Virus record (IMG/VR): IMGVR_UViG_3300028840_003224 | Coordinates: 1 to 64,000 of that record | DNA: 64,000 nt | From: an uncultured virus (IMG/VR IMGVR_UViG_3300028840_003224) | Lineage: Duplodnaviria > Heunggongvirae > Uroviricota > Caudoviricetes | Strand: one strand, 5' to 3' | Shown: positions 17,969 through 62,514 of the stretch, one piece after another | How positions within the stretch are numbered: the stretch's first letter is position 1 | Layout of the letters: every line of letters begins with the position of its first letter | Program-made: the position numbers and the translations under genes | The notes under the pieces: generated by a model | Database searches by the model: none | What the model was told of the DNA's origin: nothing | Seen by the model: only the letters and a program-made list of their open reading frames with translations

Positions 17969-18675
17969 ACAAGATGTCCGCACGCAACCCAGTTATGGTC
18001 CCGCTGAACGCCAGCGGTGTAGGCCTGCTGGAGAAGCGTCTGGACGCCAATTCATGGCTCGGGATCGGCGACAGCGTCGACCTTAACCGAGACTTCGGCC
18101 AGGAGGCCTCAGATTCGCTCCTCCTGGACTCTGTGGCTACACCCCACACGAATCACGCCTCAGACCCAGGGTCCGTTACAATGGCTCTGGTGGACTCTGT
18201 GGCGATCAATATGACGCGTCAAAGAGGCGTCGAAGACGTCGTCACCTTCTCAGACACAGCCCACGCCTGCTTATGCGGATACCGAGCGCCCACTGGCGTA
18301 GAGACGACCAAGGCGTCCGAGACGATCAACATCGGCCAGCCTGTCTTTCCTGACACCTCCACCACAGTGGCTCTGGCCACCGCCAACATCAACGGCGTCC
18401 CGGTATTCGGACTGCCTATTGGCCTCGCGATGACCGACGCCGACGTCAACCAGTCCATCTTAGTCGCCACCGAAGGCAGCGTCAATCAAGCCGACTGGAC
18501 CTTAGTGACAGGTAACACCTTATTGACCCCTGGCGCGATTTACGTGCTCGGAGGCACCGACGGGACATTGACCACCACAGCAGTCACCACAGAAGGTCAT
18601 ATGGCGATCAGAGTCGGGCGAGCAATCACACAGACCAAAATGGACATCGAGATCAGTGACGGGGTTATTATCTGA
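17965..18675 (+). CDS. Virion structural protein, decoration/cement-like C-terminal domain
   Basis: ASETINIGQPV...PIGLA...LTPGAIYVLG...VGRA. Confidence 0.7.
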   Translation: MNKMSARNPVMVPLNASGVGLLEKRLDANSWLGIGDSVDLNRDFGQEASDSLLLDSVATPHTNHASDPGSVTMALVDSVAINMTRQRGVEDVVTFSDTAHACLCGYRAPTGVETTKASETINIGQPVFPDTSTTVALATANINGVPVFGLPIGLAMTDADVNQSILVATEGSVNQADWTLVTGNTLLTPGAIYVLGGTDGTLTTTAVTTEGHMAIRVGRAITQTKMDIEISDGVII

Positions 18676-21311
18676 TGGCAACATACAAACCTCTCTGGCA
18701 GTACAGCACCCTCGTCCAGCAGTTGGACGACCCTGATGGGTTGGCCGTCGCGCACGTAGACGGTGTCGACTGGATTCAGTTCGACACAACCTTCGTCGAT
18801 GGTTCGGCTGAAGGCCGCTTGCAATGGAACAGTGACGATGGCACGCTGGAAGTCGGCATGCCGGGCGGGAACGTCAACCTGCAAATCGGTCAAGAGCAAC
18901 TGGTCCGCTGCCGCAACATCACTGGCAACACGATCAACAACGGCGACCCGGTAAGAATCTCTGGCGCGTCGGGCGGCAAACCGCTTATCTCGCTCGCCTC
19001 TGCCAACAGCATTGCTACAATGGCAGTCATGGGTTTCGCCACCGAGAACATCGACCACAACAGCAACGGTTACGTGAATGTTGGTGGTCTGGTGCGTGGT
19101 GTCGATCTGTCCACATACAACGACGGCGATCAGCTTTACCTTGGTGCAACCGGAGGCGTTACACGCCCCGCTCCAAGCTGGCCCAACTTCAAGGTGTATG
19201 TCGCCAAAGTCATCGACGCCAAAGTTGACGGCACGATGCTCATAGACATCACGATCAACCCGTGGCTTGCCGCCCTGTCCGACGTTGACACGACCAACGT
19301 CGTAGAAGGGTCTATCGCCACATACAACGCGACGAACAACAACTGGGTTGCGGGCGATGGCACTGATCCTGTTCCTCAATACTCCCACCTCAAGACGGGC
19401 TGGGATGAGAGCGCATGGGACAACCTCAACCTCAGTATCAACACGGCGAACTACACAGCCACACTCACCGCTTCGGCTGACACTGATTACTGGATCGAAG
19501 GTGTTAGACACACCTTCTCTGCGAACACCAGCAAGTCAGCCACGCTCAACAACACCGAGGGTCCGAAGTATCTCATACTGGACTCTTCTGACACCCTGGT
19601 GTTCAGCGACACTGCGTGGGACATTCATCCGAACTACCCCGCCACCCGCAACGAAGTCACAGTGGCGGCTGGCTACTGGAGCGTCGCGCAGGCGGACATG
19701 ATTACCCGCGCGATCGAGTTCCACGGGCATCACTTCTCCCCGAAGCTGCACGAGTATCTCCACGAGAACTTCGGCACGCGATGGGCAGCAGGTCTTGGCG
19801 TCAGCACTCCTGACAACCTTGTGCTGAATGTTGCTGAAGGCGAGATCTACGACGAAGACATCGAGGTTTTGATTTACGATGGCGCGGGACCAGTGAACCC
19901 GCCGCCGCCGTGGTGGCAGCAGGAACTGACCCCACTCGACACATGGACTCTGTATCGCACCGGTTCGAGCGGAAACTGGCTGTCAACGAACACAGCCACC
20001 ACTCCGACGATCATCGCCGCGAACATCCCGCAGGTCAACACCTGGAACGGGACCGATTGGAATCTGACAGATGTAGGCGTGAACAAATACTTCGCCTACT
20101 GGGTATTCGCTTCCTCTGACCGTCGTCACCCTGTCTACCTGATCCCTGGTCAGGCTGACGGTGGAACGCTTCAAGAAGCCGAAGACAACAACACTCTCGG
20201 CGACCTTGATCTTGCCAACCTGCCAACGGCAGAGCATAAGTGCATCGCCAAGGTCATTATGAAGCGAAATGCCGCTTCCCCTTACTATTCGATTGAGCAG
20301 ATCGACGATTACCGCTTCGATATTGATTCAGGGTCAGGCGCTTCATCTGCGAGCGATCACGGTGCCCTGTCCGGACTGAGCGACGACGACCACACCCAAT
20401 ACTCGCTGGCCGATGGCACGCGAGACTTCACTGGCAACGTAACCATGCCTGGGTTGACGGTCAACACGATCAACAGCTCCACTGGGAACATCAATCTTTC
20501 GACGATGAACCTGATTGGTTATAGTTCAACTTGGTACTGCGATGTGCTGGACGCCAGCACCATCAACGCTGATTATGTCTCAGCGCTCATCACGATGCAG
20601 ACCACCAACATTAACAGCTTGACGGGCACCGTCAACTTTGACGACGATCACATACTCACCACTGGCAACATCACAGGTGATGCCATACTGGCGAACGAGG
20701 GCCTGACTGGTTACGCAACCAACGATTACTCTGGCAACTTCACCTCCACCATCACCAACAACAGCCAAGGGGCCATGCTGCTCGCGAGCCAGCACTCCTC
20801 CACTGTGAACGGTGGTTACTACACTTATGGCATGTCGGTGTTCGCGTACGACACCCCGGCATCTGGCATCACCAACACCGGCACCTTAGGTGCCGCAAGG
20901 TTCTACGCCTACCTGGGCGACACCTCTACAGGCAACACGAACTACATAACGGCGTTCACAGTAGAGGCCGGAATTCCAACCGCCAACGCCGCGTCTACCA
21001 TCCTCCAGGTTGAAGGGCTGAACCTGTCAGTCACGAACTTGTCGGCCAACTCCGCCATCACCTCCGGCATAGCTCTCAGGTTGCAGTCCCCGGCTGGTGC
21101 CGGGACCATAGCCAATCGCATCGGAATCTACAGTTCTGGCGAGGACAGGAACTACTTTGAGGGCAGCATCGCTCCGGGTAACTTCTCGGACTCAACACGC
21201 CCCTCCGCCGCCTCGCTTCCTGTCGGATCAATGATCTTTAACACTGACGACAACGCTCCCAACTTCGCGACAGCGGGTGGGTGGCGTGACGCCACGGGGA
21301 CCTTAACATAA
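18675..21311 (+). CDS. Large Asn/Thr-rich fibre-like structural protein
   Basis: 878 aa; cement-like N-domain, DHGALSGLSDDDHTQY fibre motif. Confidence 0.8.
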   Translation: MATYKPLWQYSTLVQQLDDPDGLAVAHVDGVDWIQFDTTFVDGSAEGRLQWNSDDGTLEVGMPGGNVNLQIGQEQLVRCRNITGNTINNGDPVRISGASGGKPLISLASANSIATMAVMGFATENIDHNSNGYVNVGGLVRGVDLSTYNDGDQLYLGATGGVTRPAPSWPNFKVYVAKVIDAKVDGTMLIDITINPWLAALSDVDTTNVVEGSIATYNATNNNWVAGDGTDPVPQYSHLKTGWDESAWDNLNLSINTANYTATLTASADTDYWIEGVRHTFSANTSKSATLNNTEGPKYLILDSSDTLVFSDTAWDIHPNYPATRNEVTVAAGYWSVAQADMITRAIEFHGHHFSPKLHEYLHENFGTRWAAGLGVSTPDNLVLNVAEGEIYDEDIEVLIYDGAGPVNPPPPWWQQELTPLDTWTLYRTGSSGNWLSTNTATTPTIIAANIPQVNTWNGTDWNLTDVGVNKYFAYWVFASSDRRHPVYLIPGQADGGTLQEAEDNNTLGDLDLANLPTAEHKCIAKVIMKRNAASPYYSIEQIDDYRFDIDSGSGASSASDHGALSGLSDDDHTQYSLADGTRDFTGNVTMPGLTVNTINSSTGNINLSTMNLIGYSSTWYCDVLDASTINADYVSALITMQTTNINSLTGTVNFDDDHILTTGNITGDAILANEGLTGYATNDYSGNFTSTITNNSQGAMLLASQHSSTVNGGYYTYGMSVFAYDTPASGITNTGTLGAARFYAYLGDTSTGNTNYITAFTVEAGIPTANAASTILQVEGLNLSVTNLSANSAITSGIALRLQSPAGAGTIANRIGIYSSGEDRNYFEGSIAPGNFSDSTRPSAASLPVGSMIFNTDDNAPNFATAGGWRDATGTLT

Positions 21312-22876: not shown

Positions 22877-23632
22877 ATGGCACGTATCGAAATGCGTGAC
22901 GTAACCATTTACGTCCAAGACGGTCTCGCTGGGACCGCCAATCTGTCCGCCAACTCGGCGAACGCTGCCACCACCATCAACATCGAAACCGTTGTGCTGA
23001 ACACGGACACGACTAACCTCGTTCCCGTTGGCGCGCGACTGTATGTCGGTGGCGAAACCGCTAATACGGTTCATACCGTCACGGCTCGTGAGCCCGCTGC
23101 TGCTGGCCCGACGACCTGTGTTACAATCAGCCCCGCGATGGGTCCGGGCACGTACAACAGCGGCAACGCTGAAGGTGCTGTCACGTTCATCTACCAACGT
23201 CTTGAAATCAAGATCGGTGAAGGCAACTTGACTTGGTCGGAAACCAAGGAATACGAGTACCTTCGAGACCGTGGTAACCTCGACACCGTCAAGGAAGGCG
23301 ACGAGCAACCAGTCGAGATGAGTCTTGAGTTTGTGTACGACTACATCAAGTCTTCGAGCGGCGTCGACATCACGCCGGTAGACGCTCTGAAGCGTGAAGG
23401 TTATGCCAGCGAGTGGGTTTCCACATCGGCTGACCTCTGCGAGCCGTACTGCATCGACATCCTCGCCAAGCACTGTGTCCCCTGTGGCACGGACGAAGAC
23501 GAAGACGTTCTGTTCACCGACTTCCGTTATGAGTCGCTGGACTACGACATGGGCGAAGCCACCATTGCCGTCTCCGGGCGTTGCAATGTGAGCCAGCCGA
23601 CCGTAACCCGCTCGACCGACACCGAGTGTTGA
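22877..23632 (+). CDS. Major tail tube protein
   Basis: Strong AGGAG RBS, followed by terminator, chaperone and tape measure. Confidence 0.75.
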   Translation: MARIEMRDVTIYVQDGLAGTANLSANSANAATTINIETVVLNTDTTNLVPVGARLYVGGETANTVHTVTAREPAAAGPTTCVTISPAMGPGTYNSGNAEGAVTFIYQRLEIKIGEGNLTWSETKEYEYLRDRGNLDTVKEGDEQPVEMSLEFVYDYIKSSSGVDITPVDALKREGYASEWVSTSADLCEPYCIDILAKHCVPCGTDEDEDVLFTDFRYESLDYDMGEATIAVSGRCNVSQPTVTRSTDTEC

Positions 23633-35545: not shown

Positions 35546-36106
35546 ATGTTAGAGTGTTCAAAACGACAGAAGGTAGTTAAGCGGAGCGAAGGACTCACCA
35601 TACTCCGCTGCATCAACAAGCAATGTTCAGTTCACGGAAGTGAAGTGAACGAAGAGACATGTGCCCTATGCCCTGTGCGGTCGGTTCTCAATAAGACACC
35701 GCCTTGCCGGGGAGTGAAAGCCATGCCGCTTGAAGAGCTGCCTTCTGTCGACCGGGCAGCGGCGATAGACGTCTCCCACCTGTCAGCTGAAGTGCGTAAC
35801 CTGCAAGAGGGCACGGTGCTGGAAGGTGCTGAGGTGCCCGACACCGTTGAGGCCGAGTATCCTGCGTTGTCGCTACAATTGTGGCAGTACAAGGAAGCAC
35901 TGGTCAAGTGGAACAAGGCAGGACGCCCGACGCGCACCGACGAAGAGGTACAGGAAATCCACGACAAGCTCTGCACGCCGTGTGGCTGGTATGACCCCGC
36001 TAAGAAGCGTTGCCGAGGCTGTGGCTGTAAGGTCACGACCGGAGCCGTTGCGGTTTTCAATAAGCTGAGGATGGCGACAGAGAGTTGCCCGAAAGGACTT
36101 TGGTAA
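35546..36106 (+). CDS. Cys-rich hypothetical protein
   Basis: CxxC...CxxCGC...KLRMATESCPKGLW. Confidence 0.75.
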   Translation: MLECSKRQKVVKRSEGLTILRCINKQCSVHGSEVNEETCALCPVRSVLNKTPPCRGVKAMPLEELPSVDRAAAIDVSHLSAEVRNLQEGTVLEGAEVPDTVEAEYPALSLQLWQYKEALVKWNKAGRPTRTDEEVQEIHDKLCTPCGWYDPAKKRCRGCGCKVTTGAVAVFNKLRMATESCPKGLW

Positions 36107-36654
36107 TGGAATCTGCATTTGGTTGGTTGGGCCGTTTGTTTGAGGCGATGCTGGAATTAGTCCCACGGAGGGTCATCGTGAGAGCCACGGAGGGCGGCGT
36201 CCGGTGGAGCATCTGGCGAAAGCCTAGAGAGATCAAGCCCGGCTTCCGTATGTATTGGCCACTCATCACCGCCATCGAAATCATCGTCGTCGCCCGGCAG
36301 ACCATCAACACGCCCACCCAGTCACTGATGACGCGGGACGGCGAGACTGTGGTCGCGGGCGGCGTCACAATATATCACATCTCGGATGTTGTGAAAGCCA
36401 TAGGCGAGCGAAACTGGAGCCCTGAAGAAACCGCTGCGGACATCTCGCAAGCGGCGTTGGTAGAAGTGATCTCCAGCCACGACCTAGATTGGCTGCTGGA
36501 GAATATCTCTGGCAAGGTGGAGAAGGAACTCACGGAGAAGACTCGCGAGCAACTAAGAAAATATGGAGTGCATGTGGGGCGGGCGGCACTGGCCGACTTC
36601 TCGACCGTGCGTCAGTTAAACCATTCTGGTATCGTGATCAACATACAACAGTAG
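36106..36654 (+). CDS. SPFH/band 7 domain protein
   Basis: EGGVRW...PG...QSLMTRDG...YGVHV. Confidence 0.8.
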   Translation: MESAFGWLGRLFEAMLELVPRRVIVRATEGGVRWSIWRKPREIKPGFRMYWPLITAIEIIVVARQTINTPTQSLMTRDGETVVAGGVTIYHISDVVKAIGERNWSPEETAADISQAALVEVISSHDLDWLLENISGKVEKELTEKTREQLRKYGVHVGRAALADFSTVRQLNHSGIVINIQQ

Positions 36655-44455: not shown

Positions 44456-44964
44456 GCGGAGTATCACTAGTTCAGTTCAGCAACCTGGACCTGAAGAAGT
44501 TCTTACCCGCTGCGCGTGCGGCTCTTGGGAGAAGTCTGAGCGAGCCAGCGGACTCGGTGAACGCCGACCCACCCCTGCATCACATGTTGTGTATCGCGGC
44601 TCTCAAAGAACCGAACCTGAAACCCACAGCTTCGTCCCTGGCCCCGTACGCGAATCTTTTCCATGCGGGCTTCCTTGTGGCTGCGGACGAGAGAGACTTC
44701 GCAGAACTTCTAGAAGTATGCGGAATGCCCGCATTGTTAGTCGACTCCGTGCAGCGGGGTACAATGGTTGCCTTTATTTCGGGTTCAATGTCTCAATGGC
44801 GGATGGCCGTCCTACGAGGTTGTGTGTCAACTGTGACAAGCGAAGTCAGGAAGATTTGTAATCAACTCTACGCCGAGTTCAACAAGTTGGGGTTGGCCCC
44901 GATGTTTGAAGCTCGCAAACGAGAGCATACATCAGACAACACATTCTTACTGGAACATAAATGA
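44452..44964 (+). CDS. Hypothetical protein, possibly degenerate ThyX fold
   Basis: ISGSMSQWR...SEVRKICNQLY resembles ThyX C-terminus; no RHR motif. Confidence 0.45.
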   Translation: MSGVSLVQFSNLDLKKFLPAARAALGRSLSEPADSVNADPPLHHMLCIAALKEPNLKPTASSLAPYANLFHAGFLVAADERDFAELLEVCGMPALLVDSVQRGTMVAFISGSMSQWRMAVLRGCVSTVTSEVRKICNQLYAEFNKLGLAPMFEARKREHTSDNTFLLEHK

Positions 44965-46922
44965 TTGAAGAACTAAAACTTCTCAAGCAGACTAAGAGTG
45001 GCTCCTGGGTGCGTTCACCCGCCACCGTGTCTCGTGAGAATGGCCGGATCGAATTCCTCAAGTCTGACTATGCCTTGAAGGACGAGATCAAAGCAATGGC
45101 AGGGAGCAAGTGGCACGGCTTCATCGAGGGCGACAAGAGAAAGATCTGGTCGGTGTCCGACTGCACCCGCAACAACTTCCAACTCGACTACATGCAAGGC
45201 GGCAACCCATACGCTAACTGGGACAAGCCGCTACAGAACTTCATCTACGAACGGCCTTTGTTCGACCATCAGTGTTTGATGTCCGACCACTGCCTGACGT
45301 ACCACTACAAGATCCTGGCTGCCGAGATGGGCGTTGGTAAAACGCTGTCAGCCATCGAAGTGATGGAGCGGTCTGGTGTGAACGACTGGTGGTGGGTCGC
45401 CCCACGGTCTGGTCTCAACGCTGTGGACCTGGAGTTCGAGAAGTGGGGTCTGCGAACCAACCCCAACCTGATGACCTACCGTGGCTTCACTCTTGAGATC
45501 GAACGATGGGAGGCGGGCCGACCCGCACCGAAAGGTGTGATCTTCGACGAGTCTTCCCGACTCAAGTCCTGGAAGTCGAAGCGAACCAAGGCAGCTCAGC
45601 ACCTGTCTGACGCCATCCGCCGAGAGCACGGGTGGGACGGCTACGTGATCCTGATGTCTGGTACACCCGCTCCGAAGTCCCCGCTGGACTGGTGGAGTCA
45701 GTGCGAGATCTGCTACCCTGGCTTCCTGAAGGAAGGATCGGCCAAAGCGTTCGAGCAACGGCTCGGCATCTACCAAGAGAAGTACACCGACCAAGGAAAG
45801 TTCTGGACCCGCACCGCGTGGAAGGACGACGTGGAACGCTGCTCGGTTTGTGGCCAGTTCATGTGGATAGACGAGGAGCAGGAAGACGGCAGCGTCATCC
45901 GAGTGGACAACCCAATCCACATGACCGACGACATCTTCGCCTCCGACAACGCGCACACATTTGTGCCCTGTGTCAACGAAGTGGCTTACATGTACGAGCG
46001 GCTGGATGGTCTGGCTCTTCCGCTGTTGAAGAAGGACGTCCTGGACTTGCCGGACAAGGTTTACCGAGAGGTTCACCTGGAGCCGAGCAGCACCATCAAG
46101 CGTGTCGCCAAGGCCTTGGCCAAGTCGGCCCTGAGTGTCATCCAAGGCATGACGTGGCTGCGGGAGTTGTCTGACGGCTTCCAATACCGCGACGTGCAAG
46201 ACGGCGTGATCCCGTGTCCAGTGTGCAAAGGCGAAGGCGAGTGCCAGCAGTGGTTTGATGAGTCCGGTGAGACTCACGATTTCCCTGAAGGTTACGACCC
46301 AGCTGCTGCATTGGCTCGCGGCGAGATCAACTACGAGCTGCGTACTGAGCAGTGTGAGAAGTGCATGGGGTCCGGTGAGATCCCCAAAATGGTCCGCGAG
46401 ACCAAAGAAGTGAAGTGCCCGAAAGAGCAGGCCATCCGAGACCTGTTGGAAGAGAACGAAGACCAAGGCCGTCTTGTCGTCTTCGCAGGCTTCCGAGGAT
46501 CAATCGACCGGATAGTCAACGTGTGCCATGCCCAGCAATGGAACGTGGTGCGGGTCGACGGTCGCGGGTGGAAGGTCATGAGGTACGACGGTGAGCGAGT
46601 CAGCACCAAGCTGAAGCCGCTCAACTATTGGCGCAACCTTAACAACGAACGAGTCGTGTTTGTCGCGCACCCAGAGTCAGGCGGTATGGGTTTGACTCTG
46701 ACTGAGGCCAGGATGGAAGTGTTTTATAGTAACGACTTCAAACCGGAGTCGCGACGGCAGGCCGAAGACCGCATCCATCGTCCAGGCATGGACGAGAACA
46801 AGGGTGCCACCATCGTCGACCTGTTCCACCTTGGGACCGACCAGAAGGTGTTGGACGTGTTGCGAGACAATCGTCGTCTCGAAGAAATGACCTTGACAGA
46901 AATGAAGGAATCCCTAGTATGA
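44961..46922 (+). CDS. SNF2-like SF2 helicase with Zn-finger insertions
   Basis: EMGVGKT, IFDESS, MSGTP, SGGMGLTLT, QAEDRIHRPG. Confidence 0.92.
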   Translation: MIEELKLLKQTKSGSWVRSPATVSRENGRIEFLKSDYALKDEIKAMAGSKWHGFIEGDKRKIWSVSDCTRNNFQLDYMQGGNPYANWDKPLQNFIYERPLFDHQCLMSDHCLTYHYKILAAEMGVGKTLSAIEVMERSGVNDWWWVAPRSGLNAVDLEFEKWGLRTNPNLMTYRGFTLEIERWEAGRPAPKGVIFDESSRLKSWKSKRTKAAQHLSDAIRREHGWDGYVILMSGTPAPKSPLDWWSQCEICYPGFLKEGSAKAFEQRLGIYQEKYTDQGKFWTRTAWKDDVERCSVCGQFMWIDEEQEDGSVIRVDNPIHMTDDIFASDNAHTFVPCVNEVAYMYERLDGLALPLLKKDVLDLPDKVYREVHLEPSSTIKRVAKALAKSALSVIQGMTWLRELSDGFQYRDVQDGVIPCPVCKGEGECQQWFDESGETHDFPEGYDPAAALARGEINYELRTEQCEKCMGSGEIPKMVRETKEVKCPKEQAIRDLLEENEDQGRLVVFAGFRGSIDRIVNVCHAQQWNVVRVDGRGWKVMRYDGERVSTKLKPLNYWRNLNNERVVFVAHPESGGMGLTLTEARMEVFYSNDFKPESRRQAEDRIHRPGMDENKGATIVDLFHLGTDQKVLDVLRDNRRLEEMTLTEMKESLV

Positions 46923-47278: not shown

Positions 47279-47436
47279 TTCACGAACTGCTTGACAGCTT
47301 GGACACCTGCTTTCAAGACTCGCTAGTGCAAGTCGAGATCAACGGCGTCCGTCACGACATCCACCGAGCATTGGAGAACTCAGAGAGCCTCGTCCTAGTG
47401 GTCGACCTCGATGAGGAAGAAAGGGAAATGCGTTGA
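47272..47436 (+). CDS. Small hypothetical protein
   Basis: MLVHELLDSLD; overlaps both neighbours. Confidence 0.6.
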   Translation: MLVHELLDSLDTCFQDSLVQVEINGVRHDIHRALENSESLVLVVDLDEEEREMR

Positions 47437-48599
47437 AAGTTCAAGATGCCTGCCCGGCTTGTGGCACAGTGGACGTGTACCCCTTGATCGATATGGGTCG
47501 GCAGCCGCTTTCATTAGTGGCTCTGACCAAGACCAAGGGCGACTCTGAGTGTCAGCTGCGGCTGCCAATCACGATCTCGATCTGCGAGCAGTGTGGGCAC
47601 TGCTTCAACACCAGCTTCACACACGAGGTGGAGTATTCCGGCGAAGGCTGTCGCATGTGGAACAATGGCCACAGGTGGCTGCGACATATGGAAGAGCTGG
47701 CCGGAAGCGTCAACTACCGATATGGAACCGTACCGACCGTGCTGGAGATTGGGGCTGGCAACTGCGAGTTCCTCGACATGCTGGACCCTGGGTTCATCAA
47801 GATCGCAGTGGACCCGGCAGCCAACAAGGGAGGCTGCGAGGATCAGAACATTCATGTCGAGAAGAACTACTTCGACCCGAGCCGCCATCTTCCTAATGGC
47901 GCTGGCGACTTGGTCGTGGTTATGCGACATCTCCTGGAACACATGGAGGACCCGAAGAGTTTCATGGAGGGCATCGCCCAAGCCCGTCGACACTTCGGCA
48001 AGAACGCCAATGTTGTTGTGGAAGTGCCCAGCATCGAGAACGCCCTGACCGACACACGACTGGCAGACTGGACGTACGAGCACCCGCAGCACTTCACACG
48101 GGCCAGCTTGGTCAGTCTGATGCAACGTGCCGGGTTCGAGACGGACGCTTGCTACAGGTCCTACGGCGGCGAGGTGCTGGTTTACATCGGCCATGTCCTA
48201 CCGTTCGAGGAGGACACCTTCTGCAAGTTGCGCGACAGCTTTAACAAGATGTCGTTCACCTGCTGCAAGATCGGAGCCGAACTCAAAGACATGGACAGCG
48301 TGGCCTACTGGGGCGGTGCTGGCAAGTCGGCGATGTTCCTGAACTACCTCGGCGTTCCTGAAGACGCTCTGGTGGTGGACAGCGACGAGAACAAGGTCGG
48401 CATGTACGTTCCTGGGACTGGCATCCAGATCACGTCCCCAGAGAAGCTGCTGATCGACCACGTAGACACAATTGTTATAACGACTGCTTGGCGTAAGGCA
48501 GACATCGCCGAAGAGATCAAGCGTCGCAACATCCCGTGCAACCGCATCCTGTCTTTCGAGCAGGGCAAATTAGTGGAGGTCGACCGTGGCCAGGAATAA
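47433..48599 (+). CDS. NDP-sugar C-methyltransferase (Zn-binding + SAM + C-terminal Rossmann)
   Basis: CPACG..MGRQPL..CEQCGH, VLEIGAG, HLLEH, YEHPQHF, YWGGAGKS, VDSDENKVGMYVPG. Confidence 0.88.
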   Translation: MKVQDACPACGTVDVYPLIDMGRQPLSLVALTKTKGDSECQLRLPITISICEQCGHCFNTSFTHEVEYSGEGCRMWNNGHRWLRHMEELAGSVNYRYGTVPTVLEIGAGNCEFLDMLDPGFIKIAVDPAANKGGCEDQNIHVEKNYFDPSRHLPNGAGDLVVVMRHLLEHMEDPKSFMEGIAQARRHFGKNANVVVEVPSIENALTDTRLADWTYEHPQHFTRASLVSLMQRAGFETDACYRSYGGEVLVYIGHVLPFEEDTFCKLRDSFNKMSFTCCKIGAELKDMDSVAYWGGAGKSAMFLNYLGVPEDALVVDSDENKVGMYVPGTGIQITSPEKLLIDHVDTIVITTAWRKADIAEEIKRRNIPCNRILSFEQGKLVEVDRGQE

Positions 48600-50490
48600 G
48601 AAACGACAGAAGCAGCTGGACGCGAAGCGCAAGACCAAGTCGCTGCGACAGAAGGCGGTGTCCGAGCAGCTCATCATCGAGCCCACCAAAGAGACGGGCA
48701 TCCCCGCACTGAATTACAATGCGTGCTTGAAGGCGGTCACCGCTCGCGACCCCAAGGTCTGGGACTTGATCATCAAGTACCTGCTGTTCTTCGAGTCGCA
48801 TCACTTCACCAAGTTCTCCACTGCGGCCATCAAGGTGCTGAATGAATTCGTTCAGATCACCAACACGGCTTTGATGGACGAAGAGTTTGTGCCGAACGAC
48901 AATCACGCACAAGGCCTCGTCCAGGTGGGTCACTTGTACCAGCACATCGTGGCCCTTACCGGCTACGAAACAACGGACGGCCCGCTGCGGAATGTGCTCA
49001 TCACAAAGGACAACGCAGCCAAGGTTCTGATGTTGCAGAACCCTCGATGCGTGACCCAGATCTCTCAGGACAACTTGTTCGCAGTCAGCCCGATACTGGC
49101 TTCGATGTGGTACCAAACCTACTTGCTCGGTATTTCGTCGCCTACCAATGTCATTCAGGCGAACATGTACAATCACATCAAGAACATCGACTCCCGGTGG
49201 GAGCCGTACTCGAACCACGTGTCTGGCATGTACTTCTCCAGCACCTATCATTGCCCTGAGCATGTACGCAACCTGAAGGCCATCATGAACACGGCCATGA
49301 AGAAGGCCATCAAAGAGAAGCTGAACTGGACGTTCACCAACAACCCAGACCCGAAGTCAATCGCGATCATCACCAACCGGTGGCACCGCAACCACGCAGT
49401 GTACAAGTCCGCTGGCCCGCTGGTAGAGCAGTGGAAGGACAAGTACAAGCTGACCCTGATCTGGACCGGAGAGCACAACCCAGACACGATAGTGACCGAC
49501 TACTTCGACTCGGTGCACAAGTGCTACTTCCGACAGGACGGCGGAATTGAGATGCCTGAGGCGTTGGTCGACAACGACTTCCAGATGGTATACTTCCCTG
49601 ACATCGGCATGTCGGACGAGAGCATCTGGCTGAGCAACTGTCGCATGGCCCCGATCCAAGCGGTCGGCTACGGTCACCCTGACACGACCGGCGACAACAA
49701 CGAAATCGACTACCACTTCGGTGGCGACGTCGAGAAGGACTGCGACCCAGAGGCCTACTCTGAGACTCGCGTCATGATCCCTGGTCTCGCACAAGAGCCC
49801 GCGTGGCCGACGTACGAGAGGAAGCACAACTACAAGGCTGACGGCATCGTTCGCATCAACTGCGTGTGGGGCCCCGACAAATACAACAACACGTTGTTGC
49901 AGATAGTCGGTGCTATCAACCAGCGAGTCATCGCCCTGAAGAAGGAAGCCGAATCGGAGCCAGTGCTCGACCACGAGTTCCACTTCTTCGCCAGCCCTGG
50001 GGTCAACCGCTACGCTGCGTTGCCTAGCTTCGTCAACGAGGCCCGCAAGATCGTGCCGAACATGATCATGCACAACGCACAGGAGTATTACGACTACATG
50101 GAGAACGCGGAGCAGCACGACCTCTCCCTGAACTCCTTCCCGTTCGGATGCTACAACGTTCTGATAGAGAGCCTCTACATGGGGCTGCCTTTCATCACGA
50201 TGGTCGGCTCTCGGTTCTACAACCGGGCCGGTATGTGGCTGAACGATCAGGTTGGCATGAGCGAGAACAACGTGACCTCGCCTCGTGACTTTGTCGAGCG
50301 AGCAGCCGAGCTGATCGTCGACCCGGAGAAACTTGCCGCGCAGCGGGAGCACTTGGCAAGCCTGAACCTGAAGGAACGACTGTTCACACTCAAGGGAAAC
50401 TACTTCCTTGAAGCCTTAGAGTACACACTAAAGAATCACCCTTTTACTGAAACGAAACTCATCGGAGAACCAAATGACCAAGCTGAATGA
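48586..50490 (+). CDS. HMW1C-like protein N-glycosyltransferase (GT41)
   Basis: NHAVYK, YFPDIGM..SIWLSNCRMAPIQAVGYGHPDTT, DLSLNSFPFGCYN..ESLYMGLP; helical N-domain, no evident TPRs. Confidence 0.88.
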   Translation: MARNKKRQKQLDAKRKTKSLRQKAVSEQLIIEPTKETGIPALNYNACLKAVTARDPKVWDLIIKYLLFFESHHFTKFSTAAIKVLNEFVQITNTALMDEEFVPNDNHAQGLVQVGHLYQHIVALTGYETTDGPLRNVLITKDNAAKVLMLQNPRCVTQISQDNLFAVSPILASMWYQTYLLGISSPTNVIQANMYNHIKNIDSRWEPYSNHVSGMYFSSTYHCPEHVRNLKAIMNTAMKKAIKEKLNWTFTNNPDPKSIAIITNRWHRNHAVYKSAGPLVEQWKDKYKLTLIWTGEHNPDTIVTDYFDSVHKCYFRQDGGIEMPEALVDNDFQMVYFPDIGMSDESIWLSNCRMAPIQAVGYGHPDTTGDNNEIDYHFGGDVEKDCDPEAYSETRVMIPGLAQEPAWPTYERKHNYKADGIVRINCVWGPDKYNNTLLQIVGAINQRVIALKKEAESEPVLDHEFHFFASPGVNRYAALPSFVNEARKIVPNMIMHNAQEYYDYMENAEQHDLSLNSFPFGCYNVLIESLYMGLPFITMVGSRFYNRAGMWLNDQVGMSENNVTSPRDFVERAAELIVDPEKLAAQREHLASLNLKERLFTLKGNYFLEALEYTLKNHPFTETKLIGEPNDQAE

Positions 50491-51748
50491 AAAGAGCGTG
50501 AAAGAGATCAAGGTGGATCTCTCAGAGAAGCTACTCACTCAGAAGGAAATCGGCACGAAGTACGGCGTCAGCCGGTCTGTCATCAGTGACATCGCCTGTG
50601 GCCGAGTACACAAAGACGTCAAAGCGGAGATAGTCATGACCGAGCAAGACGCCCAGATCTTCAAGCTGCAATCCGACAACGAGCATCTCCGAGACGAACG
50701 CAACAAGTACAAGCGGCAGCTCAAGTCCGCCGCCAAGACTCAGGGCTTGTTCCAAGCCGTGGTCGAGGAGATGGACGAACGAGTCAAGCCGATGCGTCCG
50801 CTGCCCTCGGCACGCCCCAAGTTCAAGAAGGACGGCAAGGGCACCATCCGCGAGCACCTCGTGATGCACATCAGTGATGGTCACCACGACCAGATCGTCA
50901 CGCCCGACGACACGGGCGGACTGGAGACCTATGACTTCCCCATTTCGATGTGTCGGGCCGAGAGGTATGTTGACACGATCCTCAAGTGGACCCAGCAGAC
51001 CTTGCAAGGCTTCGCCTTCCCCAGCCTCACCGTGCTGGCCTACGGCGACCACACGTCCGGCGAGATTCATGGACATACATCGCGATCCTATTTCCGCAAC
51101 GCTTTTAAGAATGCGTTTGCTATCGGTCAACTCCACTCGCTGATGTACCGCGACCTCGCCCCGTACTTTGATCAGGTCAACATCGTCTACGTGCCGGGCA
51201 ACCACGGTCGCCGGTCCAATAAGAAGGACTACCATGGCGCGCATGACAACTGGGACTACCTGATCGCCAAGACCGCCGAGATGTATCTCCGCGACTTGCC
51301 GAACGTTTCCTTCAACATTCCCAACTCGTTCTCGTGCAACCTGGACATTGGCGGCGTCGGCTTCCAAGTCTTCCATGGCGACGACATCCGCTCAAGCTTG
51401 GGCATTCCGTGGTACGGCCTGGAGAAGCGCCGTCACCGAATGATGGCCTTGAACGGTGTTCAGAACTGTACCCCGATTCGCTACTACTGTTGCGGTCACT
51501 TCCACCGCCCCGGTTCGACGACCGAGGTGAATGGCGAGATGCTCATCAACGGCGCGTGGCCTGCAAGTGACGCCTACGCGTTCAACGCCCTCGGCGGGTT
51601 CACTGAACCTTCCCAGTTGATCCACGGCGTCAACAAGGACTATGGTATCACGTGGCGGCTTCCTGTGAAGCTGCGTTGTCCCTACGAAGCGACTGGACCG
51701 CGTCGTTACAAGATCGACCAGATGGAAGAGATCGCAGCGGCACTGTAG
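50474..51748 (+). CDS. HTH + calcineurin-like metallophosphoesterase
   Basis: ISDGH, YGD, PGNHG, FHGD, GHFH. Confidence 0.88.
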   Translation: MTKLNEKSVKEIKVDLSEKLLTQKEIGTKYGVSRSVISDIACGRVHKDVKAEIVMTEQDAQIFKLQSDNEHLRDERNKYKRQLKSAAKTQGLFQAVVEEMDERVKPMRPLPSARPKFKKDGKGTIREHLVMHISDGHHDQIVTPDDTGGLETYDFPISMCRAERYVDTILKWTQQTLQGFAFPSLTVLAYGDHTSGEIHGHTSRSYFRNAFKNAFAIGQLHSLMYRDLAPYFDQVNIVYVPGNHGRRSNKKDYHGAHDNWDYLIAKTAEMYLRDLPNVSFNIPNSFSCNLDIGGVGFQVFHGDDIRSSLGIPWYGLEKRRHRMMALNGVQNCTPIRYYCCGHFHRPGSTTEVNGEMLINGAWPASDAYAFNALGGFTEPSQLIHGVNKDYGITWRLPVKLRCPYEATGPRRYKIDQMEEIAAAL

Positions 51749-52066: not shown

Positions 52067-52792
52067 ATGGCTGGTACTATTGCCACTTTCCTGACCGCTG
52101 CATCGACCATCAACACCAACGAAGACTCTGACCAGAAAGGTCAGCAGCGCCACGCGTACAAAGAGCTGCTTGACCTTCAAGCGATCAACGACCCCACCTT
52201 GTCGCCGCCGTACTTCGCTGATGACGCTTCGGCGTCCATCGCTGCCAACGGAGGCACGACTGGCAACTTCACTATCACACTCAGCTTCCCGAAGGTGGGC
52301 GTCGAAGTCACCACAGGCAACATCGCCTACAACTCGGCGAACGCCGCCGTCCAGACCGCTCTCGACACCGCCCTGTCTGGAGAGGTTCTGAACGAGACGT
52401 ACACCGCTGACGACCTCAAGGTTGGTGTGACTGCTAACGCGTCGTCGGCAGCCATCAGCATGACGGCGAACGGAGACTCAGTCACCAACTTGAACATGCT
52501 CGTCACGACGGCCAACGTCGACATGGACGTAGCAGCACCGGCAGTCACCGCCACTGGCGTTGGCACTGGCAACCGCCAGGGTGAAGCCCTCCTGGCTTAC
52601 CTCAGCGTTGTGACGCCCTTGGGCACCATTACGCCTCAGGGTGACACGCCTGCCGAAGGCGACTACGTGTTGGGTGACAACCCATTCTCACTGAGCCCCG
52701 GCTTGCAGGAGATTATCATCTCCTCGATCCAGCGGGACGAAGACAAGACTATTGGCGACGCCATCCGCGAAGTAGTGGGGTGTGTCCGATAG
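52067..52792 (+). CDS. Virion-like Thr/Ala/Asn-rich protein outside the structural module
   Basis: AGGAG RBS; GNFTITLSF..TTGNIAYNSANAAVQTALD tail-type motif. Confidence 0.75.
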   Translation: MAGTIATFLTAASTINTNEDSDQKGQQRHAYKELLDLQAINDPTLSPPYFADDASASIAANGGTTGNFTITLSFPKVGVEVTTGNIAYNSANAAVQTALDTALSGEVLNETYTADDLKVGVTANASSAAISMTANGDSVTNLNMLVTTANVDMDVAAPAVTATGVGTGNRQGEALLAYLSVVTPLGTITPQGDTPAEGDYVLGDNPFSLSPGLQEIIISSIQRDEDKTIGDAIREVVGCVR

Positions 52793-60734: not shown

Positions 60735-60807
60735 TCCGGGATGGCGCAGTTGGTAGCGCGGCAGATTGTTAATCTGTAGGTCACTGGTTCGAGCCCAGTT
60801 CCCGGAG
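60735..60807 (+). tRNA. tRNA-Asn(GTT)
   Basis: TCCGGGA/TCCCGGA acceptor; GCAGA-tt GTT aa-TCTGT. Confidence 0.95.
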
Positions 60808-60869
60808 CTTGGTGAATTCTAGACGCGAGCACCTCTCTACCGGGACGTGGTGCGAAGCACACCAATGAC

Positions 60870-60938
60870 ATGTTTGTAGCTCAGTTGGTAGAGTGCCGGT
60901 GCCACCGGTGGTCGGGGGTTCGAGTCCCTCCAGGCATG
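60870..60938 (+). ncRNA. tRNA-Gly-like RNA with 5-nt anticodon loop
   Basis: Normal D and T arms; CCGG-TGCCA-CCGG. Confidence 0.7.
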
Positions 60939-60939
60939 C

Positions 60940-61155
60940 TTGAAAGAGAGTGCGGAGAAAGAGGCGGGCAACAGTCCGGTTTTGACCTCACTAAGGCGAA
61001 GCAGTTTTGTGAGGAAGCTGTGGACCTCGACCCTCCGCTATTGAAACAGAAGGAAGCAAAGTGAGGAGGCGGGCAGCGGCCCGGTTTTGGCCCTCACCAG
61101 GGCGAATCAGTATTGTGAGGGTGCTGAGGACCTCCAAGATCTTTGCAATTGAAAC
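60940..61155 (+). repeat. Two diverged ~105-bp tandem units, probable structured RNA
   Basis: Cores 60961-61028 and 61066-61134; units bounded by TTGAAA. Confidence 0.8.
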
Positions 61156-61160
61156 ACCAC

Positions 61161-61258
61161 CCTGGCTGCGGGGACTCTGGGACGTCCAGGTGTGACGTCC
61201 TTGCTTGTAACTGAAGGGTTCGATCCCCATTGGGTAGGTTGCAAGCCCCGCAGCTGGG
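61161..61258 (+). ncRNA. Putative structured RNA with T-loop-like hairpin
   Basis: 13-bp closing stem, two inner stems, GGGTTCGATCCC. Confidence 0.5.
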
Positions 61259-61352
61259 ATTTCACAACGGAGAAGACGATGAACTTACTTTTACCACTGT
61301 TGATAATCGCCGTGCTGCTGGTGGCGTGGCTAACTGGAGGTGACAACATCTG

Positions 61353-61595
61353 ATGCTTGACGTACTGAGCGAAGAGAAGACGAAGAACGAAGGGAACGAC
61401 ATCGGCCCGTTGGTGTGGGACTGCCTCGCCAGCCATACTAGCCTGCCTCGGGCCGCGTGCAAGTCCCTGATCTACTGCCTGATCTACGGCGGACCTGTGC
61501 TCAAGATCTGCCGAGACAACAAGCTGGGTATCACCGAGATCATGTTGATCCGGACCACGTTCGACGACATTATGGAAGGCCATATCGCCCTTTAA
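61353..61595 (+). CDS. 80-aa protein resembling PolA fingers/motif B
   Basis: GGAGG upstream; RAACKSLIYCLIYGG...KI. Confidence 0.6.
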   Translation: MLDVLSEEKTKNEGNDIGPLVWDCLASHTSLPRAACKSLIYCLIYGGPVLKICRDNKLGITEIMLIRTTFDDIMEGHIAL

Positions 61596-61618
61596 CCCTT
61601 AACCACTTGGAGACTGTC

Positions 61619-61783
61619 ATGCGAAGTAAATGGCACGAGAGACAGGAAGAGAAGAAAGCCCTCATGGAAGAGAACGCAACGGAGCGTGCGAAACGCTCAA
61701 ACAAAGAGCAGCTTGAGGCTCTTGACTTCCGCCTTGGGAAAGGCGTCGGAGCGAAGAAAGAAAGGAAACGGCTGGCCGAATGA
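61619..61783 (+). CDS. Small basic phage protein
   Basis: GGAGA RBS; QLEALDFRLGKGVGAKKERKRL. Confidence 0.75.
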   Translation: MRSKWHERQEEKKALMEENATERAKRSNKEQLEALDFRLGKGVGAKKERKRLAE

Positions 61784-62046
61784 TCGATCTGATACTGGGC
61801 TGGGCGTTGGCAGCCACCGTCATACTGCTGCTATTGTCATGGGCCCATAGTGACATGAACCGAGAGCTGGAGAGAGCCCTACAAGGGTGGCGCAAGGCAG
61901 CGGCCCTCAAGGACGAAGCTAAGAAGGAGCGCATGAGGTCCGACAAAGAGTGCGAACGACTCAAGTTAGAGCTGTCTGTGGCGAACGCTCGCCGCATCCA
62001 AGTCCTCGACGATATGCATGAGGCCCTCGAACAGCACGAATATTAA
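61780..62046 (+). CDS. TM + coiled-coil protein
   Basis: ATGA overlap; hydrophobic N-terminus. Confidence 0.7.
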   Translation: MIDLILGWALAATVILLLLSWAHSDMNRELERALQGWRKAAALKDEAKKERMRSDKECERLKLELSVANARRIQVLDDMHEALEQHEY

Positions 62047-62051
62047 ACGCT

Positions 62052-62120
62052 TGCGGATGGGCTGGTGCTCAGCCGGGCCTCATAAGCCTGGACTCGAAGG
62101 TTCAATCCCTTCATCCGCAA
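62052..62120 (+). tRNA. tRNA-Met/Ile2(CAT) with minimal D-arm
   Basis: TGCGGAT/ATCCGCA; CGGGC-ct CAT aa-GCCTG; GAAGG-TTCAATC-CCTTC. Confidence 0.75.
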
Positions 62121-62122
62121 CT

Positions 62123-62239
62123 TGATCGGTTCTCCTCGCGGCTTGCAGTACACAAGCTGCCAACCCCTGCCAGGGGTAACTAGCGGGGAAGCGGGCTCGC
62201 GCGAGCCCACGGCATGGGGTGCAATTCCTTGGCCGATCA
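62123..62239 (+). ncRNA. Expanded tRNA-like RNA
   Basis: TGATCGGTT/GGCCGATCA closing stem, T-arm-like GGTGCAATTCC, extra internal hairpins. Confidence 0.55.
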
Positions 62240-62362
62240 CTTACTGAAATGCACCGAGGACTCTAGACCCGTGGTCCTCTGGTTGGTGCAGTCTCGTCTG
62301 GGCTTGGGCGGCGAAGTGGTAGACCAATACCCTCACCCCGGCCCAGCGAGGCGAACGGGTAT

Positions 62363-62435
62363 GCCCCGTTAGACTAATGGCCATGTCGCCACCCTTTCAA
62401 GGTGGAGGTTGCGAGTTCGAGTCTCGCACGGGGTA
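62363..62435 (+). tRNA. tRNA-Glu(TTC)
   Basis: GCCCCGT/ACGGGGT; CCACC-ct TTC aa-GGTGG. Confidence 0.92.
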
Positions 62436-62437
62436 CT

Positions 62438-62514
62438 GTGGTCGTAGCTCAATTAGTTAGAGCGTCGGATTGTGATTCCGAAGGTTGTGGATGCGAGTTC
62501 CACCGGCCACCCCA
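62438..62514 (+). tRNA. tRNA-His(GTG)
   Basis: GTGGTCG/CGGCCAC; TCGGA-tt GTG at-TCCGA; C-CCA end. Confidence 0.92.

Follow-up and report, generated by a model that had tools for sequence, protein, structure and literature searches.

Which molecules are modified, and with which sugar, by the pair of overlapping open reading frames (ORFs) that lies between two replication genes of an uncultured virus (IMG/VR record IMGVR_UViG_3300028840_003224)? One ORF encodes a putative nucleoside diphosphate (NDP)-sugar C-methyltransferase of 388 aa (MT) and the other a putative family GT41 glycosyltransferase of 634 aa (GT). We refer to the two genes together as the cassette and to the 64,000-nt stretch of DNA that was analyzed as the window. 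A preliminary description, made from the DNA letters and their ORFs, had proposed that the pair adds a hexose, possibly methylated, to Asn within N-X-S/T sequons of virion or host proteins. The analysis presented here agreed with that proposal on the identities of the enzymes, the donor pocket and the coupling of the two genes, and parted from it on Asn-sequon specificity, sequon enrichment and the suggested targets. We favor, with moderate confidence, a reading in which the cassette glycosylates protein, MT making a methyl-branched sugar donor and GT transferring it to a site other than N-X-S/T, with an ancestry shared with MT-GT41 pairs of planctomycete flagellin loci.

Identity of the glycosyltransferase

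The two ORFs were found exactly where the preliminary description had placed them, overlapping by 14 nt (Table 1), and the GT translation contained both of the strings that had been picked out in it, 'VYFPDIGMSDESIWLSNCRMAPIQAVGYGHPDTT' and 'FPFGCYN'. A Pfam search with GT returned zero matches at E ≤ 1e-2, PF13844 included, a model which many members of its family do match. The NCBIfam N-glycosyltransferase (NGT) model NF049992 matched GT at E 8e-24 with 84.2 bits, a score that misses the equivalog cut-off of 1000 bits. When GT was compared with PDB sequences by phmmer, AaNGT and ApNGT (E ~2e-20) came ahead of SPINDLY (SPY; 5e-9) and of the O-GlcNAc transferase (OGT) XcOGT (1e-6). An hhalign comparison of the GT family profile with an EtpC-type enzyme, encoded on an E. 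coli plasmid in a locus of the classical transporter-adhesin-hmwC kind (L151: ShlB-type transporter, adhesin, hmwC), gave a probability of 99.9% and E 2e-34 over 577 columns.

An AlphaFold (AF2) model of GT built from a 27-sequence alignment had a mean predicted local distance difference test score (pLDDT) of 88.4 and a predicted template modeling score (pTM) of 0.87. Foldseek matched this model with probability 1.0 to NGT, OGT and SPY structures alike. The alignments to ApNGT and AaNGT (8j30/3q3e/8p0q) were full-length, covering ~640 columns with template modeling (TM) scores of 0.70-0.75 at 19% identity, while those to OGT and SPY, which carry tetratricopeptide repeats (TPRs), reached TM scores of about 0.44-0.53, indicating the HMW1C architecture of an all-alpha domain joined to a GT-B domain with no TPRs. 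By profile and predicted fold GT is a GT41 enzyme with HMW1C/NGT architecture, as had been proposed, and the profile and structure comparison that had been suggested as a check placed it nearer to the NGTs than to the TPR-type OGT and SPY.

The all-alpha domain is the most divergent part of the enzyme, with 42.7% identity inside the phage clade. It is preceded by a basic segment of 30-56 residues, containing 8-14 Lys and Arg, in 8 of 9 phage GT representatives; cyanobacterial and EtpC enzymes do not have this segment. In the phage enzyme it is modeled as a helix which may act as a nucleic-acid tether, a membrane tether or a packaging signal. A predicted complex of MT with GT residues 36-634 scored 0.00 in a run made without controls, a score that carries no weight for or against contact between the two.

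Identity of the methyltransferase

MT matched three Pfam families in the order PF08421 (residues 7-60, E 8e-5), PF13489 (100-237, E 2e-13) and PF08484 (286-357, E 7e-11), the zinc-ribbon match to PF08421 being, at 23 bits, under its cut-off of 31.3. The closest PDB structure was the mycarose 3-C-methyltransferase TylC3 (4rv9, E 1e-15, residues 5-355), followed by 5t64, a sugar 3-C-methyltransferase of the KijD1 type, and TcaB9. Residues invariant across 20 phage and planctomycete orthologues were C7, C10, C51, C54, H56, G107, G109, R165, H166, E169, H170, Y215, E216 and H217, of which the four cysteines are the zinc ligands and G107/G109 the glycine motif for S-adenosylmethionine (SAM). The triplet Y215-E216-H217 ('YEH') aligned with 'HEH' of TylC3, so that the Glu-His pair, which is catalytic in TcaB9, is common to both. 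From these matches MT is a homologue of the TylC3/TcaB9-type C-methyltransferases; the zinc, SAM and C-terminal domain layout and the NDP-hexose C-methyltransferase type had both been recognized in the preliminary description, and both were borne out by the Pfam and PDB searches, PF08421 at a sub-threshold score.

Conserved donor pocket and loss of the sequon readers

According to the accessible part of the structural study of AaNGT (PMC10507012), the nucleotide sugar is contacted by His276, Ser277, Arg280, Gly369, His370, Thr437, Lys440, His494, Ser495, Tyr500, Thr519-Gly521 and Asp524, while Arg177 and Asp215 bind the +2 Ser/Thr of N-X-S/T, the R177A and D215A variants being inactive. Equivalent GT residues were taken from three alignments, namely phmmer alignments to 8p0q/8j30/3q3e, the hhalign alignment to the EtpC-type enzyme, and MAFFT. 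His276, Gly369-His370, Lys440, Tyr500 and Asn520 were kept in GT as H270, G363-H364, K432, Y504 and N524 (H277, K441 and N521 are the ApHMW1C numbers for His, Lys and Asn). The position of K432 needed manual re-registering in the phmmer alignment and was confirmed by hhalign and MAFFT. Arg280 and the acidic ribose ligand Asp524 (D525 in ApHMW1C) were replaced conservatively by K274 and E528, and Ser277 was changed to A271. H270, G363-H364, K432, Y504, N524 and E528 were invariant across 27 members of the GT family, so the nucleotide-sugar pocket, on which the preliminary proposal had been made to depend, is conserved.

The residues that read the sequon are not. Asp215 corresponded to G214 in all three alignments, and Arg177 to Y179 (phmmer) or G182 (hhalign); neither Arg nor Asp was found at these two columns in any of the 9 phage GT representatives. 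Pseudanabaena-type cyanobacterial relatives retained both residues in the MAFFT alignment, indicating that the loss is clade-specific. The HMW1C-like enzyme HmwC, 41% identical to ApHMW1C, is an O-GlcNAc transferase that glycosylates Ser, as stated in the available portion of its description (PMC11329713), and the HMW1C fold therefore does not dictate Asn as acceptor. Given the lost readers and this precedent, Asn specificity cannot be inferred for GT. Together with a score of 84 bits against the 1000-bit equivalog threshold, they leave the Asn-linked N-X-S/T transfer of the preliminary description without support, and the alignments argue that GT is not a sequon-reading Asn-glucosyltransferase.

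Four of the cyanobacterial loci (L055, L058, L062 and L047; Pseudanabaena/Xenococcaceae) encode enzymes with the Arg, the Asp and the His of the H270 column all kept. These residues suggest that the four may truly be cyanobacterial N-glycosyltransferases that read the sequon. Their neighbors were unremarkable (chemotaxis-like genes, FHA, GT4).

Co-inheritance and distribution of the cassette

A total of 224 homologues were recovered at E ≤ 1e-3, mostly on phage-sized contigs, and all 8 of the non-self viral GT loci showed the gene order primase, ParB, two small genes, SNF2 helicase, MT, GT, exonuclease. The number of homologues and the conserved synteny indicate that MT and GT are real genes and not chance ORFs. 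Among 41 phage loci anchored on the exonuclease gene, 26 contained both MT and GT, none contained one alone, 14 contained neither and one was too short to score; the set includes the near-duplicates L086/L087, L089/L090, L096/L097 and L099/L100 as well as the window's own contig (L073). In all 14 pair-lacking loci the helicase-exonuclease interval was free of MT and GT, and in several of them (e.g., L102) the two flanking genes abut. The pair is an accessory cassette that is strictly co-inherited, and this pattern, which answers the co-occurrence check called for in the preliminary description, supports, along with the overlap of the two ORFs, functional coupling of MT and GT. As the pair-lacking relatives keep the replication module, the module works without the pair, which weakens any argument from position for a role on DNA. 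A further GT41 paralogue is present in some cassettes, and a gene for RNA ligase is often next. These larger cassettes were considered as a source of missing parts and held no sugar-synthesis gene or acceptor.

A profile search with the GT family gave 21,669 proteins when E was capped at 1e-3, of which 534 also passed 1e-30; almost all of the 150 highest-ranking ones were full-length. The GT41 module was found fused to a SAM methyltransferase (P0133, P0159), a sulfotransferase (P0215), a GT4 domain (P0160), a GT14 branching enzyme (P0200) and further GT41 copies. Sequence patterns of the phage clade had zero relatives in 185,579 species genomes, no homologues were present in 50,697 deposited phage genomes, and no viral protein in BFVD had the GT architecture (best TM 0.36, generic GT-B). 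The titles and opening lines of abstracts returned by a literature search described no phage GT41 or HMW1C-like system.

Cellular relatives in planctomycete flagellar loci

An alignment of distant GT representatives was used to find 60 cellular loci. In 9 of them a full-length MT of the phage type (30-36% identity) adjoins GT41; 7 of the 9 are labeled Planctomycetota and 6 of the 9 contain flagellin, FliD or FliS. No other phage protein matched these 9 loci, and they are therefore not prophages. Pfam identified MT, GT41, FliD and FliS in L023; a 1065-aa flagellin, MT and GT41 in L024; a 1069-aa flagellin, MT and GT41 in L027; GT41, MT and FliD in L030; GT41, MT, FliD and FliS in L036; two flagellins, GT41, a TylF-like O-methyltransferase and MT in L038; a TPR-type GT41 in L025; three sulfotransferases, a C-methyltransferase, a radical-SAM protein and two GT41 in L032; and a metabolic context in L045. 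An apparent MT-GT fusion ORF in L024 was rejected: the MT and GT matches lie in different frames, and the joined ORF is an artefact of frame in a locus of high GC content.

Flagellin, FliD or FliS lay within 7 kb of GT41 in 13 of the 60 loci, and Pfam also confirmed flagellar genes at L033, L035 and L044. The ten best cellular matches to the phage GT, all labeled Planctomycetota, were 31-34% identical over ~550-620 residues, and nine of them had flagellar genes within the same distance. A quick IQ-TREE search placed 9 phage, 10 planctomycete and 6 other representatives on one side of a branch with an SH-like approximate likelihood ratio test (SH-aLRT) value of 98, the phage clade itself having a support of 99. 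FastTree with 17 more phage GTs (26 in total) and the EtpC-type enzyme returned the same superclade (support 91), with one main clade of phage GTs (99) and, apart from it, another made up solely of the extra paralogues of phages (90). From the trees and the paired genes, the phage cassette probably shares ancestry with the MT-GT41 pairs of planctomycete flagellar filament loci.

The planctomycete flagellar-locus GTs likewise lack the NGT sequon readers. Giant flagellins of 913-1069 aa (L023, L024, L027, L033, L035, L038) have Ser/Thr-rich central domains, and in five of them these domains contained 18-22% Ser/Thr and 32 sequons against 50.3 expected (z -3.0), a depletion that makes glycosylation directed to N-X-S/T less likely in the nearest cellular clade too. 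In enterobacteria, flagellin glycosylation islands encode GT41 of eleven types, almost every one of them joined to methyltransferase domains, according to the accessible text of PMC4875605. With the planctomycete pairs, these fusions make the combination of GT41 and methyltransferase a recurrent one in flagellin-glycosylation loci; the literature retrieved, in its accessible portions, reports no biochemical test of the planctomycete pairs or of the enterobacterial fusions. The flagellin gene and GT41 of L033 are separated by a radical-SAM/SPASM gene.

Probable host of the phage lineage

The Thermoguttaceae chromosome that carries locus L023 (G020) contains three regions with full-length homologues of the phage capsid protein (50, 43 and 42% identity). 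Each also has an exonuclease homologue (54, 49 and 49% identity) 25-28 kb from the capsid gene, and by this gene content the three regions are prophages of the phage lineage. They do not contain the cassette, and the only GT41 match in this genome is the flagellar-locus copy. In two of the three regions the exonuclease homologue has one in-frame TGA. No further capsid homologue was found in 301 genomes of a planctomycete phylum sample, and enrichment at the level of the phylum was rejected, since 1 of 301 planctomycete-phylum genomes and 1 of 301 control-phylum genomes matched, the control match being partial. One homologue was labeled by its source as coming from a Planctomycetota metagenome-assembled genome (MAG). 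This label, the one Thermoguttaceae genome and the kinship of the cassette suggest that the phage lineage probably infects Planctomycetota.

Search for the acceptor

Sequon expectations were obtained from within-protein shuffles of 59 ORFs. Structural ORFs contained 60 sequons against 62.9 expected (z -0.41) and the other ORFs 47 against 46.5 (z 0.08), so that the comparison of structural and non-structural proteins proposed in the preliminary description found neither set enriched. In the 878-aa ORF, a putative fiber with 8.4% Asn, we counted 18 sequons where shuffles gave 13.5 ± 3.2 (p ~0.10), in line with the earlier count of about 18 sequons among about 74 Asn and with the earlier view that enrichment was not established. 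A tRNA-Asn gene is present, as had been noted (Table 1), and carries little weight as an argument for Asn glycosylation.

The 878-aa protein and the 241-aa protein encoded downstream of the cassette, both named earlier as targets, were not conserved with the pair. The former gave one weak partial match among 11 pair-bearing contigs and one among 7 pair-lacking contigs, and the latter was absent from many pair-bearing loci (L076-L078, L083, L086-L095). No extra Ser/Thr-rich tails were seen on the conserved structural proteins of pair-bearing phages.

A putative tail-tube family, comprising one window protein and its orthologues in 14 related phages, has about twice the expected number of N-X-S/T sequons. 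The excess was seen both in pair-bearing phages (54 against 25.2 expected) and in pair-lacking ones (18 against 9.3), and may be structural, reflecting for example Asn-turn motifs. A C-terminal sequon in this protein was rejected as acceptor, since it separated 5 pair-bearing from 2 pair-lacking phages in the first 7 genomes only; with 15 genomes it was present in 8 of 9 pair-bearing and 3 of 6 pair-lacking phages (Fisher p 0.14). Comparison of gene content identified four ORFs that all 4 complete pair-bearing genomes contain and that both complete pair-lacking genomes are without (Table 1). The two pair-lacking genomes are also the most distant, and these ORFs are therefore weak leads confounded by phylogeny.

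A gene for a Stf0-type carbohydrate sulfotransferase (PF09037, E 2e-16) is present outside the window. It was rejected as a third component of the cassette, with 0 homologues in 6 related complete phage genomes. A link to the cassette in this phage only is possible, by analogy with the sulfotransferase-GT41 fusion P0215 and with locus L032.

Proposed function and alternatives

In the reading that we favor, the cassette would be an accessory insertion between the helicase and exonuclease genes of the phage replication module. MT would take a nucleotide-activated 4-keto-hexose of the host, such as a host NDP-hexose 4,6-dehydratase would produce, and add a C-methyl branch via SAM. GT would then use the methyl-branched sugar nucleotide, or a form reduced by the host, as donor, and the sugar would pass to a polypeptide held in the groove between the all-alpha and GT-B domains. 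As the residues reading the +2 Ser/Thr are lost, the linkage is more likely to be to Ser/Thr or to another motif than to N-X-S/T. It is the sugar chemistry, the protein acceptor and the linkage atom that we infer here; in the phage, the sugar could be received by a virion protein or by a protein of the host, flagellin being one example.

Several observations weigh against this reading. Neither a 4,6-dehydratase nor a 4-ketoreductase was found in the phage genome, so that the proposed MT substrate would have to be host-derived, and the rest of the genome held no other sugar-nucleotide gene (dehydratase, reductase, aminotransferase or other). The donor site has a signature of the phage clade's own (H267, H270, P471, H496, E528), which makes the donor sugar uncertain. 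In the planctomycete flagellar-locus GTs the H270 column is occupied by Ser/Thr and the E528 column by Asp; a His at the former is crucial in HmwC, ApHMW1C and OGT, according to the portion of PMC11329713 available, and the Ser/Thr of the planctomycete enzymes suggests that the chemistry may differ between clades. Both trees are quick or FastTree searches with midpoint rooting, from which the direction of transfer cannot be read. The all-alpha domain of the phage GT shares 22.8% identity with the flagellar-locus enzymes and 21.6% with the rest of the family and is no nearer to the former, so that homology points to no particular acceptor, flagellin included. Cyanobacterial and melainabacterial members of the family occur in mixed contexts, some with polysaccharide genes, making a non-protein acceptor possible for the family. 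The cassette is embedded among replication genes with which it is probably co-transcribed, and this also fits a nucleic-acid-related role. Finally, the acceptor tests (sequons, 878-aa and 241-aa proteins, Ser/Thr tails, tail tube, gene content) were all negative or weak.

The alternative that survives best is that the cassette glycosylates host flagellin, or another surface or filament protein of the host, and alters the flagellar glycan during infection; this might block superinfection, or stop progeny from being trapped on the flagella of lysed cells. We consider it rather unlikely. The flagellin/FliD/FliS setting of the closest cellular MT-GT41 pairs and the prophage relatives in a Thermoguttaceae genome bearing such a locus speak for it, as do the accessory nature of the cassette, its position among early/middle-type genes outside the virion module, and the finding that no virion protein co-varies convincingly with the pair. 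They are offset by an acceptor-binding domain that is not specifically like that of the flagellar-locus enzymes and by a donor-site signature that differs from the planctomycete one. Use of the flagellum by this phage has nothing in its support, and the gene-content comparison has two pair-lacking complete genomes only, confounded by phylogeny. A bolder version, which we regard as doubtful, is that a planctomycete-phage lineage captured and long kept a module of the flagellin-glycosylation type and uses it to give a filament or surface protein a new decoration, a methyl-branched sugar, during infection. If so, the target would be host flagellin, a likely receptor or progeny trap, or the phage's own tail or capsid clothed in a flagellin-like glycan.

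Attachment of an NGT-type, perhaps methylated, hexose to N-X-S/T of phage virion proteins such as the 878-aa and 241-aa proteins now appears improbable. ApNGT and AaNGT, both N-glycosyltransferases, are indeed the closest solved structures, the donor pocket is conserved, the putative tail-tube family has about double the expected sequons, and its conserved C-terminal Asn lies in a sequon in nearly all pair-bearing phages. Against these stand the replacement of Arg177 and Asp215 by Gly/Tyr and Gly in the phage family, while Pseudanabaena-type relatives keep both, and the score far below the equivalog cut-off. Sequons are not enriched in this phage, the tail-tube excess is equal with and without the pair, the C-terminal sequon is found in half of the pair-lacking phages, and neither proposed target is conserved with the pair. 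The flagellins beside the closest cellular relatives are sequon-depleted.

We give similarly little credence to a non-protein acceptor, in which a component of the host envelope (a polysaccharide, a lipid-linked glycan or a small molecule) would receive the sugar in a manner resembling seroconversion. Some cellular members do adjoin polysaccharide export, WecG, pyruvyl-transferase or GT4 genes, and GT41 fusions to GT4 and GT14 domains exist, but the phage clade groups with the flagellar-locus clade and not with the members in polysaccharide contexts, and the all-alpha domain of the HMW1C type is the peptide-binding module in the solved NGT complex, as given in the accessible part of PMC10507012.

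Glycosylation of phage DNA or nucleotides with a methylated sugar, as an evasion of restriction, is very improbable and a DNA target unlikely: position and probable co-transcription with replication genes, the phage-specific basic N-terminal helix, and the genomic presence of a protein with a dATP/dGTP diphosphohydrolase-like N-domain, an NT5C-type nucleotidase and a DNA methylase would fit it, but all structures matched at E ≤ 1e-3 are protein glycosyltransferases or their homologues (NGT, OGT, SPY), the fold includes the peptide-binding all-alpha domain, no thymidylate-synthase-like base hydroxymethylase was found in the 101.6-kb record, the closest cellular relatives lie in flagellar and not in restriction or nucleotide loci, and 14 related phages have the same replication module without the pair.

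Genome context and other features of the window

The window is part of a siphovirus-like phage genome, the IMG/VR record of which is 101.6 kb and 96% complete by CheckV; the analysis also covered a 73.9-kb version of this genome. Terminase, portal, P22-type capsid, tape measure and tail genes span ~10.7-36 kb, and the replication module at ~37-59 kb encodes a primase, a ParB-like protein, an SNF2 helicase, an Mre11-like exonuclease and a family-A polymerase. The start of the exonuclease gene overlaps the end of the GT gene by 17 nt. A scan for promoters and terminators gave counts no higher than the shuffled level. Flagellin, FliD and FliS had zero matches in the phage and in 8 related phage loci, and no adhesin substrate locus (two-partner secretion or autotransporter) was present in the window or the rest of the genome. 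Elsewhere in the genome are genes for the Stf0-type sulfotransferase, two radical-SAM proteins, NT5C, RtcB/RlaP, a DNA methylase and a GNAT protein.

Six tRNA genes (Pro, Asn, Gly, Met, Glu and His) were found. In the 395-aa ORF of the minus strand the first 100 residues match the N-terminal domain of dATP/dGTP diphosphohydrolase (PF18909, E 1e-20), and the remaining ~300 residues have zero family matches. An endonuclease VII gene (PF02945, E 1e-25) lies between the large terminase and portal genes. Two paralogous neighbors of 359 and 392 aa contain ~19-20% Ser+Thr; the first gives a leucine-rich-repeat match, and both were found only in the closest relative (G003).

Table 1. Positions of the features discussed, in window coordinates unless a handle is given (G000, this phage; G020, the Thermoguttaceae genome).
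Feature	Position	Strand	Remarks
SNF2-type helicase	44961..46922	+	phrog_62, E 8e-57; upstream boundary of cassette insertion site
NDP-sugar C-methyltransferase homologue (MT), 388 aa	47433..48599	+	TTG start; Pfam and PDB matches
TPR-less GT41 glycosyltransferase (GT), HMW1C/NGT architecture, 634 aa	48586..50490	+	GTG start; profile, PDB, model
Lys/Arg-rich N-terminal helix of GT, residues 1-35 (12 Lys+Arg)	48586..48690	+	model helix 3-27
All-alpha (acceptor-binding) domain of GT, residues ~36-248	48691..49329	+	model secondary structure, alignments
GT-B catalytic domain of GT, residues ~249-620	49330..50445	+	donor-site H270, G363-H364, K432, N524, E528
Mre11/SbcD-like exonuclease	50474..51748	+	phrog_284, E 2e-38; downstream boundary of cassette
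241-aa downstream protein	52067-52792		earlier proposed target
878-aa putative fiber	18675-21311		earlier proposed target
Capsid protein	16174-17559
Putative tail-tube protein	22877-23632
Pair-tracking ORF, 260 aa	4561-5343
Pair-tracking ORF, 123 aa	17597-17968		directly after capsid gene
Pair-tracking ORF, SPFH/Band-7 protein	36085-36654
Pair-tracking ORF, GNAT acetyltransferase	G000-extended 74717-75193
Stf0-type sulfotransferase	G000 72893-73666		= L010:8893-9666
tRNA-Asn	60735-60808
Six tRNA genes	60735-62514 and 2573-2647
ORF, 395 aa	37782-38969	-	PF18909 N-terminal match
Endonuclease VII	12358-12819	+
Paralogous neighbor, 359 aa	7380-8459	+	leucine-rich-repeat match
Paralogous neighbor, 392 aa	8472-9650	+
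Prophage-like regions	G020:C1 1478065-1507085, 2174425-2200792, 2692004-2717735

Comparison with known systems

New in this analysis are the flagellar-locus link, the 26/0/14 pattern of co-inheritance, the reader-keeping cyanobacterial members, the sequon depletion of the flagellins and the Thermoguttaceae prophages. The cassette occurs widely among uncultured phages and belongs to a very large, uncharacterized family of enzymes with HMW1C architecture. The flagellar tie suggests glycosylation of giant flagellins as a possible cellular role of the family, and it points to a way in which phages may interfere with, or mimic, a glycan on the host surface. Glyco-engineering could profit from an enzyme of NGT fold that follows another acceptor rule and possibly takes a branched sugar as donor. 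If the bolder version given above, with capture of a flagellin-glycosylation module, is right, this would be the first GT41-based protein glycosylation in a bacterial virus and the first phage-encoded glycosylation of the flagellin type.

Virion glycosylation encoded by the phage itself is known from mycobacteriophages (PMC12582341, accessible part, citing Freeman et al. 2023). Very few systems of phage-encoded protein glycosylation are known, and none found here is GT41-based. Both the mycobacteriophages and the present phage encode glycosyltransferases of their own, with the difference that the cassette gene sits in the replication module. The mycobacteriophage enzymes are not known to belong to GT41 and appear to be of a different family.

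With TylC3 (4RV9), TcaB9 (3NDI) and the KijD1-type enzyme (5T64), MT has in common the three-domain layout, the four zinc cysteines and the SAM motif, although identity is low (E 1e-15) and the phage lacks accompanying dehydratase, reductase and aminotransferase genes. GT resembles the NGTs of CAZy family GT41 (ApNGT 3Q3E/8J30, AaNGT 8P0O-8P0Q, EtpC-type) in its TPR-less all-alpha and GT-B domains, in the donor-site His, Gly-His, Lys, Asn and acidic residue, and in being of the soluble, metal-independent type. It differs from them in being only 19-20% identical, in having lost the sequon-reading Arg177/Asp215, in its basic N-terminal helix, in its pairing with a C-methyltransferase and in being phage-encoded with no adhesin or two-partner-secretion neighbor, unlike L151. 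HmwC, as far as the available text of PMC11329713 describes it, retains an equivalent of Asp215 (Asp217), whereas the phage GT is far more distant from ApHMW1C and does not have that Asp.

The closest resemblance is to the planctomycete flagellar pairs (L023, L024, L027, L030, L036, L038), in which the same two enzyme types are adjacent and fall in the same superclade, at identities of 31-34% for GT and 30-36% for MT over full length. Unlike these pairs and the enterobacterial islands, the phage cassette has no flagellin, FliD or FliS beside it; with its nearest cellular relatives so placed, the cassette is kin of the flagellin islands rather than a member of them.

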